Positions 3,963-10,219 of a stretch of DNA of 10,219 nt are shown in pieces; position 1 is the stretch's first letter, and each line of letters begins with the position of its first letter. The translations under genes were made by a program, and so were the position numbers. A model generated the notes under the pieces. The model had not been told where the DNA came from. It searched no databases and was given only the letters and a program-made list of their open reading frames with translations. Source of the DNA: a virus; the UHGV virus genome UHGV-0130837; one strand, 5' to 3'.

Positions 3963-5699
3963 TCACACAATGATGGGATTACTGAAAAAGTCGTCGATAT
4001 CGCCAGAATCATCCTCATAGCCTTCGGAGGCACCGATTGCCATAGCGCCCGCTACAATGCCGTCGATACGCCCGGTACTTTTTTTCTTGGCAAAAATTCG
4101 GTTTTCTTTCTGATCAGCCTCCGTCACTGCTGAAGCCGCATTCCAGCGAAGACAAGGGTTCGTCCTGATGATAATGACACTGTCATCAAGCAACTCTTCA
4201 AACAATTCGATGGAGTGAGGCATCCACAGCCCGGAATCTTTCGCTTTGTAATACCCTTGCCCATGAGGGATTAACGGAACAGAAACAGATGCTTCCTCAA
4301 GCTCCGGCTCAAGATATTTAATGCGATACTGGTCGAAGGCGATGGCCTTGATATCAAACTTCTGAGTCAGATCTGCAATGCGCTGGGCAACAAAGCCGTA
4401 TTTCACTGCTTTGCCAGGTGTGGTGTGGATGTGACCATCTCGCTCCCAGGCGTCATAAGGTACCCGGTCCGTTTTGGCCCGTTCCAGTAACGTATCTTTC
4501 GGGGTCCAGAACTCCACCAGCAACTTACGTTGTTTTGGAAAAAACAACGCCAGTGCCGTCAAATCACGCGATCCGGACAGGTCTAAACCGCCATAGCATT
4601 CCTCACCTTCCAGTTCATCTGGATCAAAGCTCTCCTCACAACCCATCCAGACATCACTGCTCATCCACGGATTAGCCGCGTCAACCCACTGACAGAAGTT
4701 AAGACGTCTGACGATGCTCTCTTTCGATGGCATCCCGCGGGCCTGAGTCACCTGCTCACGAAGATAGCTTTCTTCAAAGGTGTGACCCAGCGAAGGGTTA
4801 GCTTTCTTCCAGCAGGACTCATCCTTGAAAGGATCGTCTCCTTCATCCAGAGAACAAATGAAGGCAAAAAAGCTGTCATCTTCTATCGAACCGGCAGAAA
4901 CCTTTCGGCCGTATTCGTGATAGTCATAGCAGACACTCGTTTTATCGTGCCCACTGTTGGTGATCATGAAAATCAGCGCCTGCCGACGACCTTTGGTACC
5001 GGCACGCATCATTTCAACAACCTGATTGCTTTTATGCTCGTGAACTTCATCAATAAGAGCACAATGCGGTCGCGGGCCGGACTGCCCGTCATCTGAACTG
5101 ATTGGACGAAAGAAGGAACCAGACTGAAGAAAAGCCAGGTTCCATTCCTTCCCGGCACCACCTGATTTCTGAATACGTGCGGAAAGAGCTGGAGACTGAT
5201 CGACCATCGCCACCGCATCACGGAAAAGGACCATTGCCTGGTCTTTCTTCGTGGCAGCGGCATAAACTTCAGCGCGTGCTTCTTTATCCGCAGTGAGACA
5301 GTAAAGCCCTATACCCGCAGACAGAGGGGATTTACCGGATCCCTTCCCGGACTCCACATAGACCATTCGGAACCGGCGAAAACCTCTGGCGTTTTTCCAG
5401 CCAAAAATCGAACCGACGATGAAGCACTGCCATGGCAGCAACACGAAAGGCTCGCCTTCGAAATCACCACCATTGAGCTTCAGAACTTTCGCAAAATAGT
5501 CAATCGAGCGTTGCGCCGCCTCAACATCCCAGTGCAGACCACGGGCATGACATGACTGCAGATCGTTGAGGTGGCGCTGGCATGAGTTACGTATGTCAGG
5601 ACCAGCCAGTTCTTTGCCCGAGGTTACATCCATCGCATATTGGGTTGCTGGATCAACCGAAGAACTTATCGAGCGTGTCCTCTTCGGGGTCTTCGCCAT
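3963..5699 (-). CDS. terL: Terminase large subunit (ATPase plus nuclease)
   Basis: 578 aa. Walker A-like VESGKGSGKS and Asp/Glu-rich C-terminal nuclease region. AGGTG Shine-Dalgarno upstream of ATG 5697-5699. The 5' end overlaps terS by 47 nt. Confidence 0.93.
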   Translation of the reverse strand: MAKTPKRTRSISSSVDPATQYAMDVTSGKELAGPDIRNSCQRHLNDLQSCHARGLHWDVEAAQRSIDYFAKVLKLNGGDFEGEPFVLLPWQCFIVGSIFGWKNARGFRRFRMVYVESGKGSGKSPLSAGIGLYCLTADKEARAEVYAAATKKDQAMVLFRDAVAMVDQSPALSARIQKSGGAGKEWNLAFLQSGSFFRPISSDDGQSGPRPHCALIDEVHEHKSNQVVEMMRAGTKGRRQALIFMITNSGHDKTSVCYDYHEYGRKVSAGSIEDDSFFAFICSLDEGDDPFKDESCWKKANPSLGHTFEESYLREQVTQARGMPSKESIVRRLNFCQWVDAANPWMSSDVWMGCEESFDPDELEGEECYGGLDLSGSRDLTALALFFPKQRKLLVEFWTPKDTLLERAKTDRVPYDAWERDGHIHTTPGKAVKYGFVAQRIADLTQKFDIKAIAFDQYRIKYLEPELEEASVSVPLIPHGQGYYKAKDSGLWMPHSIELFEELLDDSVIIIRTNPCLRWNAASAVTEADQKENRIFAKKKSTGRIDGIVAGAMAIGASEGYEDDSGDIDDFFSNPIIV

Positions 5700-7278: not shown

Positions 7279-7563
7279 ATGATCGATCATTACTACGTAA
7301 CTCACGCTCAAATCCTGGCGCTGAGAAACGTTGTTGCTTTTATCGTGCAAACGATGCCCGAAGAACAAAAAGAAAATGTCCTTCAGGTTTTGAGAAAATT
7401 TGCTGAAATAGAATTAATGGATGGTATCGACACGCCGCCTACGAGTGATATCACCCCGAAAACAGTTGAAAAGTTAAATAAAGCCTACAAGGCAGTCTTC
7501 AATGACATTATCGATCTTTCAACGCCTGGCAGGGAATCTGCTTCAGCAAGCTACCTGCAATAG
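7279..7563 (+). CDS. Hypothetical protein (94 aa), moron-like cargo gene on the opposite strand
   Basis: ATG 7279-7281 with AGGT 7 nt upstream. Candidate -10 TATACT at 7237-7242. Followed by a hairpin terminator. Hand-counted GC of sampled 60-nt lines is about 40%, against about 57% in a capsid line. Mildly acidic, predicted helical, no signal peptide. No family recognised. Confidence 0.6.
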   Translation: MIDHYYVTHAQILALRNVVAFIVQTMPEEQKENVLQVLRKFAEIELMDGIDTPPTSDITPKTVEKLNKAYKAVFNDIIDLSTPGRESASASYLQ

Positions 7564-7653: not shown

Positions 7654-7884
7654 TCATCGCGTAACCCTGCCGGTTGGTTGCGGGCAGTTAGCCTGCACTG
7701 ATTTGTTGTGCGCCAGAATGTCGCGCTTCGTCTGCTTATCCAGCACATCGATATCGTGGTCAGTAAGGTAGATGATCCGCACCCAGCTGCACGCGGTATC
7801 AACCACCACCGGGGCGGGTAAACTTTTCGCGCAGCTCGCGATCAACATCGTCATCGCCCATACGCTTAACGCTCTCTTCAACAT
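7654..7884 (-). CDS. Outer-membrane spanin lipoprotein (o-spanin, Rz1-like), overlapped architecture
   Basis: Begins at Met54 of the 129-aa ORF: MLKRALSVWAMTMLIASC… is a lipoprotein signal peptide with lipobox IASC. The mature part is short, Pro-containing, with extra Cys. AAAGGGG Shine-Dalgarno 6 nt upstream. Starts inside the i-spanin gene in another frame and extends beyond it. Confidence 0.6.
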   Translation of the reverse strand: MLKRALSVWAMTMLIASCAKSLPAPVVVDTACSWVRIIYLTDHDIDVLDKQTKRDILAHNKSVQANCPQPTGRVTR

Positions 7885-8080
7885 CGCTGGCCCCTTTCGT
7901 GGCTTCTGCTTTACGTTCTGCCGCGGCGACGCTGGCGGCCGCCTTCTCTTCGGTGCGCTGCCGGCTGGCTTTCGCTTCTGCTTTACTGGTGCCTCGCGCA
8001 TGGCCAATGCCGAACGCGCCAGCAATAGCGCCCAGAATGACAACCACCAGCCCCGCGATAGCTTCTATTCCCATGATCAT
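7799..8080 (-). CDS. Inner-membrane spanin (i-spanin, Rz-like)
   Basis: 93 aa. N-terminal TM helix (IEAIAGLVVVILGAIAGAFGIG) followed by an Ala/Glu/Lys-rich helical region. Start overlaps the endolysin stop (ATGA). Caveats: shorter than typical Rz, and the charge distribution around the TM is atypical. Confidence 0.5.
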   Translation of the reverse strand: MIMGIEAIAGLVVVILGAIAGAFGIGHARGTSKAEAKASRQRTEEKAAASVAAAERKAEATKGASDVEESVKRMGDDDVDRELREKFTRPGGG

Positions 8081-8706
8081 CCCACCAGTACCGATTTTGC
8101 TTTCAGGAATCGGGCGCGTCGGTCATCAATGCCGTTCTGCCCGCCGTTGATAATCTGGGTCACGCGCACTAAATCTCCGTGGTATTTCAAACATCCGTTT
8201 GAGGTGTAAAACCAGGCTGCGCTGCGGGCCGCATTAATATATTTCTCCAACAACTCAGGGTTGCTGACTAAATCCAGTTTCAGTGCATTACCGCACTTCA
8301 TATAATTTTCGAGGAAGGTGATCCCGATAATTCCACGCCCGCGGTATTTCCAGCCATCGCCCGCAGCCTTATTGCCAAAACGATTGTTGTAGACGAGATT
8401 AGCGATCGCTCGTTGACGTTCGATCGGTAAAACCTTTTCGTAAGTTTTACGCCCCAGGGTGTTCGCCTGGTCCTGCGTGATGCGCTTTGCCTTCACAAAA
8501 CCAGCCAGGCCGGCAACGCTATAGTTAAAACTTTCGACCATCTGGGTAAATGACGTGCTTTCGTGTCCACACTGCGCTATGAACATCGCCTGATCGAGTG
8601 GAGCTGTAATGCCGAATTCTTTCATCGCAGCATCAATATGCGGAAACCAGCGCGCAGCTAACCCGGCGCTGATACCAGCCGCCCTTTGAAATTGTGATTG
8701 GTTCAT
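8077..8706 (-). CDS. Endolysin, glycoside hydrolase family 19 (chitinase-like) type
   Basis: 209 aa; sequence …FIAQCGHESTSFTQMVESFNYS…NNRFGNKAAGDGWKYRGRGIIGITFLENY… matches GH19-type phage lysins. No signal peptide. Start overlaps the upstream membrane-protein stop (TGATG). Confidence 0.88.
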   Translation of the reverse strand: MNQSQFQRAAGISAGLAARWFPHIDAAMKEFGITAPLDQAMFIAQCGHESTSFTQMVESFNYSVAGLAGFVKAKRITQDQANTLGRKTYEKVLPIERQRAIANLVYNNRFGNKAAGDGWKYRGRGIIGITFLENYMKCGNALKLDLVSNPELLEKYINAARSAAWFYTSNGCLKYHGDLVRVTQIINGGQNGIDDRRARFLKAKSVLVG

Positions 8707-8984
8707 CAGTGCCTCAGTGCATCAACCAGTCGCGCCACATTCCCCCTGAACCAGAGAACCGCGCCGCAGATAAGAATGTTAGCCAGCACCACCAGCCAGT
8801 GGGATGACTCGTACAGGCCAAACAGGAAACGGAAAGGGATGCTGGCATAAACCAGCACCATGAGATAAGCCAGAACGGATATGCCCGGACGGTGTCTCGC
8901 ACTACCTCGTTGGTAGAACATCAATGCCAGCACAATGACGGCGCAAATGACTGCATTGGCCAGCGCTGAAGGATCATTTACCAC
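8706..8984 (-). CDS. Holin/antiholin-like small membrane protein (about 3 TM segments)
   Basis: 92 aa, three hydrophobic segments, immediately upstream of and translationally coupled to the endolysin. Confidence 0.6.
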   Translation of the reverse strand: MVNDPSALANAVICAVIVLALMFYQRGSARHRPGISVLAYLMVLVYASIPFRFLFGLYESSHWLVVLANILICGAVLWFRGNVARLVDALRH

Positions 8985-9363
8985 TTGAACCTCCTCCCCG
9001 GAACCGGGTCAGCATATTGAACAAGCTATTTAGATCCTGGCTGTTGAGAAACGTCAGAACTTTGATGATAAGCGCTGATATTAATACGGCTCCCAACGCA
9101 TCAAGCGGACGGTCGCTGTAGCCAGTCCAGCTTGAAAGCTTGGAACCCACCAGACCGGCGCCCAGAACACCAACAATGAATGACGTCATAAAGTATGCCA
9201 CCAGCTTACCGCGCGATATGTTAGCTGCCGTGGCCACGTAAAAAACCGCCCCGGCGAACGCACCAAATACCACGCCGTAATCTATTCCGGTAGCCAGACC
9301 GAACATGCTAGCCCCCATCAGGCCGCCGGCCGCAACTGAAGTACCAGAGACAGGATCGGACAT
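8974..9363 (-). CDS. Putative holin (multi-TM small membrane protein with charged C-terminus)
   Basis: 129 aa with several Gly/Ala-rich hydrophobic helices and a basic C-terminal tail. First gene of the lysis cassette. AGAGGGGG Shine-Dalgarno upstream. Confidence 0.6.
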   Translation of the reverse strand: MSDPVSGTSVAAGGLMGASMFGLATGIDYGVVFGAFAGAVFYVATAANISRGKLVAYFMTSFIVGVLGAGLVGSKLSSWTGYSDRPLDALGAVLISALIIKVLTFLNSQDLNSLFNMLTRFRGGGSSGK

Positions 9364-9408
9364 TTAGCCCCCTCTATTGCTGTGGATCCTCTCAGAACGA
9401 GGGGAAAA

Positions 9409-9422
9409 TAGGATGGCCGCCA
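9409..9422 (+). repeat. 14-bp direct repeat copy 1 (TAGGATGGCCGCCA)
   Basis: Identical 14-mer at 9409-9422 and 10022-10035; the pair brackets the plus-strand gene 9606..10016 and its upstream region. Confidence 0.5.
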
Positions 9423-9605
9423 TGTGACAGCCACCAAAAATCACTGTAAAAATATCAGGATTCACCACCCTCTCAGACGGATTTATTCTTCTTGTTCAGT
9501 CTCGTCCGCGTACGAAGCCAAGGATGTATCCAAGACCAAAACAAGAAAAACCGAATCCCACCACGGGTAATACTGAATAAATAAAATCAGGCATAGGGAA
9601 ATCTC

Positions 9606-10016
9606 ATGGAAATTATTTCAGTAATCGGAGTGATACTGACACTGCTAGGGCTCTTTATTCCGTCACTAATCAGTAACCATTCGTCACGTAAGGCAGAGTT
9701 CAGGAAGCATTCCGCACCACTGCTGGGAAAGTTGCTAAGCGAAATTGAGGCTATTGAAGGAGGCTCTTATCCATTCAGGCTTATCAGCGATGCTGATTTC
9801 AACCAGTTGCTACCTTACGCCCCGAGGCGCAGGAAAAACGCTCTCCTTGATGCTTACACCAGTTATCTCGACGCTCATACGATGGCCACCACGAAGCACT
9901 GGCACGATGAACATCCATCCGATGGAATGCTATTTTTCCCGACGGGTTTCTCAGTCACTAATTCAGATGAGGTACTGAAGAAAATGCAACCTCTGAAAAA
10001 AGAACTCAGCAGATAG
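9606..10016 (+). CDS. Hypothetical membrane-anchored protein (136 aa), moron-like cargo gene
   Basis: ATG 9606-9608 with AGGGA 6 nt upstream. N-terminal TM helix (IISVIGVILTLLGLFIPSLI) followed by a basic stretch and a soluble domain of about 110 aa. Opposite strand to the late operon. Hand-counted GC of sampled lines is about 38-50%. Candidate -10 TAATACT at 9568-9574. Confidence 0.6.
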   Translation: MEIISVIGVILTLLGLFIPSLISNHSSRKAEFRKHSAPLLGKLLSEIEAIEGGSYPFRLISDADFNQLLPYAPRRRKNALLDAYTSYLDAHTMATTKHWHDEHPSDGMLFFPTGFSVTNSDEVLKKMQPLKKELSR

Positions 10017-10021
10017 TCCTT

Positions 10022-10035
10022 TAGGATGGCCGCCA
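10022..10035 (+). repeat. 14-bp direct repeat copy 2 (TAGGATGGCCGCCA)
   Basis: See copy 1; located 6 nt after the stop of the 9606..10016 gene. Confidence 0.5.
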
Positions 10036-10084
10036 GATGGATTAACGACAAAGCACAGAGTGAATGATGCTCTGGTGGCACAAA

Positions 10085-10109
10085 TAAAAAAGCCATGCAA
10101 ATGCATGGC
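10085..10109 (-). terminator. Intrinsic terminator (strong on minus strand; possibly bidirectional)
   Basis: Stem GCCATGC (10092-10098) / GCATGGC (10103-10109), loop AAAT. On the minus strand it is followed by TTTTTTATTTG; on the plus strand by a weaker CTTGTGGTTTG. Confidence 0.5.
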
Positions 10110-10219
10110 CTTGTGGTTTGAATCCGTTATTTACAAAATGTATTCGAGACAGTATCTTTCGACTTCCGGACAAAAAAACATATACCGGGACAAAATCTAA
10201 ATGTAACTGCCTTGCCTGC

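Follow-up and report, generated by a model that had tools for sequence, protein, structure and literature searches.

The late genes of a lambdoid, HK97-like prophage, from the capsid to the holins, all lie on the minus strand of the DNA analysed here, and directly upstream of the holins a gene of no recognised family runs in the opposite direction. The question raised by this locus is what that gene encodes, how it came to lie there and what it may do for the prophage. The stretch analysed, referred to as the window throughout, comprises 10,219 nt of the viral genome UHGV-0130837, and its closest sequenced relatives are Klebsiella prophage-derived phages. The listed genes, all minus, are the capsid gene (724-1944), followed by protease and portal, the large terminase (3963-5699), followed by small terminase and HNH endonuclease, and then the spanins, a GH19 endolysin (8077-8706), a Phage_holin_3_7 holin (8706-8984) and a Phage_holin_8 holin (8974-9363; Pfam E 6e-42, PHROG 198), the last being the first holin gene and the context of the left boundary discussed below. 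A tRNA scan of the window found none, and an Rfam scan of positions 9000-10219 returned sub-threshold chance matches on the terminator only.

The antisense gene, ORF136, occupies positions 9606-10016 on the plus strand, and the ORF list, its homologs, an alignment and an AlphaFold2 model agree on a 136-aa protein in which an N-terminal TM helix is combined with a helical domain. The original prediction of a membrane-anchored protein with a basic stretch, encoded on the strand opposite to the late operon, was borne out, as the hydrophobic maximum falls on residues 4-22 and is followed by the basic stretch SNHSSRKAEFRKH. The predicted drop in GC content was also found but is modest, with ORF136 at 46.5% and the cassette that contains it at 44.7%, compared with 51.1% in the whole window and 53-55% in the holin genes. 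The structural model, which was computed from a 20-sequence alignment and reached a mean pLDDT of 86.8, consists of a single continuous helix at residues 2-51 (TM and stalk) and a small helical domain; the positive-inside rule predicts that this soluble domain is cytoplasmic. Two motifs are kept among the homologs, GGSYPF and HWHDEHPSDG. The latter is part of a His-rich loop, AH...KHWHDEHPSDG, at residues 91-106 (window 9876-9923; H91, H98, H100, D101 and H103), which is modelled with lower confidence and may be a metal site. The loop is retained in most of the ORF136 core family and is not found in members P0025 and P0027 or in the distant branch described below.

ORF136 is a genuine, rare, uncharacterised and conserved accessory prophage gene. 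Its 23 homologs (49-99% identity) are unnamed throughout and come from Enterobacterales without exception, and when 1.84 billion representative proteins were scanned in full with HMMER, just 27 family members were recovered. Among 185,579 species-level representative genomes the gene was present in four; Klebsiella michiganensis DSM 25444 has a copy that is 99% identical. A tblastn search of 50,697 GenBank phages with ORF136 and with the 32-aa peptide encoded next to it found none, as did a megablast search of complete E. coli genomes with the region and with the E. coli version of the cassette, and the core family is known from prophages and metagenomes only. That the protein would belong to no recognised family also held, as ORF136 had no match in Pfam, NCBIfam, PHROGs or PADLOC; in PADLOC-DB 2.0, the peptide and the P27 L13 protein were likewise without match, and the other relatives had only weak, chance-level matches. 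Searches of the PDB by sequence and by Foldseek returned nothing, the fold searches returned generic helical bundles only, and the structure points to no function. No similarity to known defence, exclusion, toxin or holin families was found.

Comparison with related loci showed that window positions 9436-10021 are a ~0.6-kb two-gene accessory module (a moron) of lambdoid Enterobacterales prophages. It was found in eight independent contexts, namely Klebsiella-type, E. coli, Salmonella, Mixta, Kosakonia and Leclercia prophages and two metagenomic lineages, and in 8/8 of them ORF136 lies between the gene of antiterminator Q and a holin, antisense to the late operon and followed by a terminator, which agrees with its original placement in a cargo hotspot. 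In the window, the gene was indeed found between the first holin gene and a terminator, the latter being a two-way intrinsic terminator at 10089-10112 (plus strand 10092-10109, minus strand 10112-10089) that is shared with Klebsiella phage KPP5665-2 and is predicted both to end the ORF136 transcript and to act as an internal terminator of the late operon. Non-homologous terminators lie 3' of ORF136 in loci L005, L007, L012 and L013. The neighbours of the cassette vary widely, including two Q families (PF03589 and PF06530), at least five holin families and two endolysin types. Its presence is sporadic: 29 IMG/VR viral contigs have the same late leader as the window, 16 of them with and 13 without the cassette, which is also missing from phages KPP5665-2, KO-TP1 and ST16-OXA48phi5.3. 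On the holin side, the cassette sits on the Q side of a terminator hairpin that precedes the holin leader.

Two further features of the interval between Q and the holins were observed outside the window. In the Leclercia locus (L014), a tRNA-Arg(TCT) gene (5414-5489, minus) directly adjoins the cassette, which resembles the Q-to-stx interval of Stx phages. An element GTGCCGGGTGCCTCCCGGTGA recurs in four otherwise different phages (L001 3411-3435, L002 5020-5044, L003 2908-2932 and L014 5703-5727), where it lies towards Q from the late leader.

The identical 14-mers that had been reported on either side of the gene are exact, with copies of TAGGATGGCCGCCA at 9409-9422 and 10022-10035. Three sites with at most two mismatches were found against a mean of 0.08 in shuffled sequences, and ~0.03 exact pairs within 700 bp would be expected. 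The base that follows the 14-mer is G in 17 related loci, which extends the repeat to 15 nt there, and the spacing of 613 bp is constant in 12 related loci. An exact repeat that brackets the unit at constant spacing is what would be expected of a site-specific single-gene cassette with the 14-mers as its boundary sites; however, the unit has two genes, and the double 14-mer is restricted to the Klebsiella lineage, being absent from the cassette flanks in the E. coli, Kosakonia, Leclercia, Salmonella, Mixta and Buttiauxella versions. The DNA block that is common to all lineages (9436/9444 to 10016/10023) lies inside the repeats. Moreover, both copies are parts of something else. The left 14-mer lies largely within a terminator-like hairpin before the holin leader (9412-9435, minus; 10 pairs in the terminator scan, -15.9 kcal/mol, z -2.7), of which it forms one arm. 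Since a homologous hairpin is found after the same holin_8 leader in the cassette-less phage ST16-OXA48phi5.3 and in the Buttiauxella version, the hairpin belongs to the holin-leader module and not to the cargo. The right 14-mer is the start of a conserved late-operon leader (ATGGCCGCCAGATGGATTAACGACAAAGCAC..., 10026-10088, minus) that was recognised from KO-TP1 and the 29 IMG/VR contigs and is also found without the cassette; in KO-TP1, it lies directly upstream of other holins. The right copy has GGCCGCCAGATGG in common with the Leclercia hairpin, lacks a complementary arm and shows no significant fold (z -0.6); it represents a truncated remnant of a similar terminator hairpin.

No recombinase was found in the window or the cassette, and a search for a precise empty site carrying one 14-mer was equally negative, as the context of the left copy always occurred together with the cassette. 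It had been proposed to check whether related prophages carry or lack the segment between the 14-mers as a unit; the cassette does come and go among them, but with no precise 14-mer junction: the predicted junction was present in none of the 13 cassette-less leaders. Of the two routes of acquisition proposed originally, short-homology recombination fits the data while site-specific recombination does not, and a cassette moved by way of the 14-mers is very improbable and largely refuted. As judged from these comparisons, the 14-mers are scars of mosaic recombination at terminator sequences, not att sites, and the simplest reading is that such recombination occurred repeatedly at terminator and leader sequences that are short and conserved. 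In Salmonella, direct repeats that contain terminators bracket the cassette, measuring 73 nt (81% identical) and 20 nt (95% identical). In Leclercia, a 24-nt terminator hairpin occurs on either side of the cassette, and its far copy is joined to a relic of a holin_8 leader; a flanking repeat is absent in four other lineages. Read in this way, the repeats point to terminator hairpins acting as recombination joints in lambdoid mosaicism. A target duplication of the transposon type was considered separately and ruled out, as there is no transposase, there are no inverted repeats, and the repeat is part of a pre-existing terminator and leader.

The second gene of the cassette, which had been overlooked when the unit was described as a single gene, is an unannotated gene on the minus strand (9594-9496) for a 32-aa single-TM peptide, MPDFIYSVLPVVGFGFSCFGLGYILGFVRGRD, recognised by its conserved translation and third-position bias. 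It is arranged head-to-head with ORF136, with 11 nt separating the two start codons, and is co-directional with the late and lysis operon. The peptide consists of one TM helix with a glycine-rich sequence, GFGFSCFGLGYILG, and a charged tail, and is conserved at the protein level in the E. coli, Leclercia, Buttiauxella, Salmonella and Mixta-type loci as well as in lineages P0024 and P0030, which are more distant. Between the window and locus L012, the gene differs at 11/3/23 first, second and third codon positions, and this excess at third positions argues that it is under coding selection. It is also the best-conserved DNA of the unit, with 87% identity between the window and Salmonella, where the identity of the ORF136 protein is only 49%. 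The peptide is annotated as a gene in L005 and L049, and an exact look-up in databases returned it as a hypothetical protein only. Searches with five variants found no Pfam, NCBIfam or PHROG match, and a full-text literature search for its motifs found no paper.

Relatives of the peptide were gathered from IMG/VR and by exact look-up. The peptide gene accompanies ORF136 in every lineage examined, if disrupted copies are included, and on 22 of the 28 peptide-bearing viral contigs ORF136 is adjacent and divergent; it lies 2 kb off on one contig and is absent from the remaining five. In these five loci, the peptide gene is an ordinary late gene inside or after the lysis cassette. For instance, it lies between endolysin and spanins in L083, beside a relic of ORF136 of ~25 codons, and just 3' of the spanins in L081, where it has a strong Shine-Dalgarno sequence and its own hairpin. 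Because the peptide occurs in five loci without ORF136, and because a repressor-linked branch of the ORF136 family has no peptide, the two genes may be neighbours by architecture and not partners.

Several cassettes carry alterations in or next to the peptide gene. In Kosakonia (L013, about 4900-4990), a 1-nt deletion causes a frameshift that inactivates the peptide gene while ORF136 is intact, and in Mixta mediterraneensis (L011 3098-4911), an insertion of the IS21 family cuts off the peptide gene, again with ORF136 intact. The Salmonella cassette (L007, about 4845-4930, plus) contains an additional 28-aa hydrophobic ORF, MSTFEKLAIVICFMAIAAALVFYKLHHL, which is convergent with the peptide gene and occupies the place of a promoter motif that is kept in other lineages.

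This motif belongs to a predicted sigma-70 promoter of ORF136 (TTCACC-17 nt-TATTCT, 9461-9489, plus), which I found by my own scan and which is conserved in position: promoter-like sequences of the form TTCAC(C/T)-17 nt-TAT(T/G/C)CT occur at the same place in five lineages (the window, L005, L013, L014 and L046). The site matches the consensus at 4/6 and 4/6 positions and was missed by a stricter tool; its predicted -10 element is at 9484-9489, and the site lies within the conserved motif AAATATCAGGNTTCAC. Transcription is predicted to start near 9496, which would give the ORF136 mRNA a leader of ~110 nt; this leader would be antisense to the peptide gene over its full length and to both ribosome-binding sites. 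For the peptide gene, my own PWM scan yielded a weak candidate -10 element (AATAAT after TG, 9612-9617, minus) within codons 3-4 of ORF136, which was not detected by the consensus scan and is of low confidence. The peptide gene points the same way as the late operon, and Q-modified polymerase would therefore be expected to transcribe it along with the holins and antisense to ORF136.

These predictions suggest how the two genes may be expressed. ORF136 would be made in the lysogen from its own sigma-70 promoter, its transcript would end at the two-way terminator, and its leader would hold the peptide off. Q-driven late transcription in the opposite direction would then express the peptide with the lysis genes and silence ORF136. 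The function of ORF136 in such an arrangement would most likely be directed against incoming phage, by exclusion or abortive infection. The reading that I favour, with a confidence that falls somewhat short of even, is thus that ORF136 is a lysogen-expressed inner-membrane exclusion or abortive-infection protein whose transcript silences the late peptide by antisense pairing.

The same predicted transcript, which spans the peptide gene and both ribosome-binding sites, would also fit a type I toxin-antitoxin-like pair, in which the peptide is a membrane-damaging toxin, the ORF136 leader a cis-antisense antitoxin and ORF136 possibly a membrane antidote; such a module would stabilise the prophage, or abort infection upon shut-off of host transcription. 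With its 32 residues, one TM, glycine-rich helix and charged tail, the peptide has the size and shape of such toxins, and the two genes are co-inherited and diverge in parallel. Similar to hok/sok, ibs/sib, ldr/rdl and tisB/istR, the locus combines a hydrophobic peptide of fewer than 40 aa with a predicted covering cis-antisense transcript; unlike in those loci, however, the antisense RNA here would be the leader of a protein-coding mRNA, and the peptide belongs to no toxin family, having no match to Hok, Ldr, Ibs, TisB or other toxin families of Pfam and NCBIfam. It also occurs in the five loci with neither ORF136 nor promoter, where it is an ordinary late gene preceded by a strong Shine-Dalgarno sequence, and there are relatives of ORF136 without any peptide. 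A toxin-antitoxin function is considered unlikely.

The constant company of lysis genes raises the further possibility that the peptide is an accessory of lysis control, which would tune holin triggering or envelope disruption late in infection, while ORF136 in antisense orientation would adjust or block it, for example against premature lysis. The peptide gene always adjoins lysis genes in the same direction, lying directly upstream of the holin in eight contexts and in or beside the lysis cassette in L083 (the endolysin-spanin gap) and L081 (past the spanins). Yet the module travels among at least five unrelated holin families and two endolysin types with no tie to a given lysis protein, and 13/29 related contigs lyse without it. 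ORF136, which is sporadic among relatives, had no holin or antiholin match; these profiles did not match the peptide either, while both adjoining holins matched strongly. Finally, the relatives of ORF136 are found in immunity regions and not in lysis cassettes, and a role in lysis control appears improbable.

These relatives also bear on the exclusion or abortive-infection reading. Profile searches extended the family to a distant branch (hmmsearch E 2e-8 to 9e-4), and the homology between ORF136 and this branch covers the full length (HHalign probability 99.2%, E 8.7e-20, 124 columns). The architecture of TM helix, basic juxtamembrane stretch and helical domain is common to both, and this sequence evidence places ORF136 in a so far uncharacterised superfamily of helical prophage proteins with a TM anchor. 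The distant branch is commoner than the core, with at least 127 IMG/VR matches, and its members match phrog_13469 (no known function) with E-values of 3e-6 to 2e-3; ORF136 itself did not match phrog_13469. The branch includes the C-terminal 142 aa of L13 of the Stx2e phage P27, which is probably also the protein behind a BFVD match at E 5.7e-4.

In 30 of 80 relative loci examined, the gene lies 21-244 nt downstream of a gene for a CI-type repressor (HTH_3 + Peptidase_S24) on the same strand, and in two further distant-branch contexts (2/2) it follows the Arc/Mnt-type repressor gene of an ant-arc-mnt module. These places are the slots of lambda rexAB, downstream of cI, and of P22 sieA, near mnt. 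The repressor linkage is good circumstantial evidence that members of the superfamily are expressed with the prophage repressor in lysogens, a profile that suits exclusion or abortive infection, and for ORF136 such a role is plausible. The predicted cytoplasmic domain of ORF136 is not obviously suited to blocking DNA entry.

As for individual members of the superfamily, L13 of phage P27 (L044 7104-7775, minus) is deposited with 223 aa, of which only the last 142 (from MGIIWSEF) align, and members are 127-144 aa long; the deposited N-terminus is probably over-extended. In L057 (3061-4411), the distant member P0035 is followed by a DUF4145 protein and faced by a DUF4760 protein, and the locus looks like a small accessory island beside mnt in a P22-like prophage.

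The favoured exclusion or abortive-infection reading can be extended, with considerable speculation, to a lysogeny/lysis switch of a new type. Here, the glycine-zipper peptide would be a toxin or lysis effector, the membrane-anchored protein its antidote or sensor within the membrane, and the leader an antisense silencer, the whole acting as an abortive-infection or exclusion device in the lysogen that is flipped by Q-driven transcription; the members of the cI-linked superfamily would then form a class of single-gene exclusion proteins in the rex slot that has gone unrecognised. I consider this extension doubtful.

Set against known systems, the cassette resembles the lambdoid morons (lambda bor and lom, HK97 gp15) as reportedly defined by Juhala and Hendrix in 2000. 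Like these, it is small and independent, has a predicted promoter and a terminator, lies between genes of an operon, is lower in GC and sporadic, and encodes a membrane protein; it is antisense to the late operon as is bor. It differs from them in its two head-to-head genes with a predicted antisense overlap and in its proteins, for which Pfam and PHROG searches found no similarity of the Bor, Lom or gp15 type. The cassette also occupies the same interval between Q and holin as the cargo of Stx phages (stx and tRNA genes; P27), but stx lies in the direction of late transcription, on which it depends, and ORF136 in the opposite one; the products are unrelated. P27 L13 (phrog_13469) is, like ORF136, the product of a prophage accessory gene and homologous to it over the full length; in contrast to ORF136, its branch has an RDKRKEFN motif, lacks HWHDEHPSDG, adjoins repressor genes of the cI or mnt type and is without a peptide partner. 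The relatives of ORF136 resemble lambda rexAB and P22 sieA in their repressor-linked slots, in being small membrane proteins and in their presumed synthesis in the lysogen, but there is no homology, and ORF136 itself lies outside that slot. P22 SieA was compared as a possible relative, since members of the superfamily lie near mnt, and was rejected as a multi-TM protein with no visible similarity. Csx28 (PDB 8gi1), the membrane-pore accessory protein of Cas13b, was also named among the nearest known systems.

The analysis brings to light two paired prophage membrane proteins that have not been studied and connects one of them, ORF136, with a wider superfamily, the other branch of which lies in classic exclusion-gene slots. 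If it is true that these proteins exclude phages or abort their infection, they would constitute a new and compact defence family that is easily tested. Regulation by antisense coupling to a late membrane peptide, as predicted here, would be unusual.

Two minor observations concern other parts of the late region. A second gene antisense to the late operon (7279-7563, plus; 94 aa, GC 42%) belongs to phrog_19753, which has no known function; it is sited between the spanins and the HNH and terminase genes, about where lambda has bor, and is kept in Klebsiella phage ST16-OXA48phi5.3. The neighbouring spanin pair (7654-8080, minus) appears to be overlapped. The ORF at 7799-8080 opens with a TM helix and is i-spanin-like, while in the ORF at 7654-8043 (minus) an internal start precedes a lipobox (MLKRALSVWAMTMLIASC) and only the last 70 residues match PHROG 1275, which is Rz-like, for which reasons the o-spanin is probably much shorter than the listed ORF.
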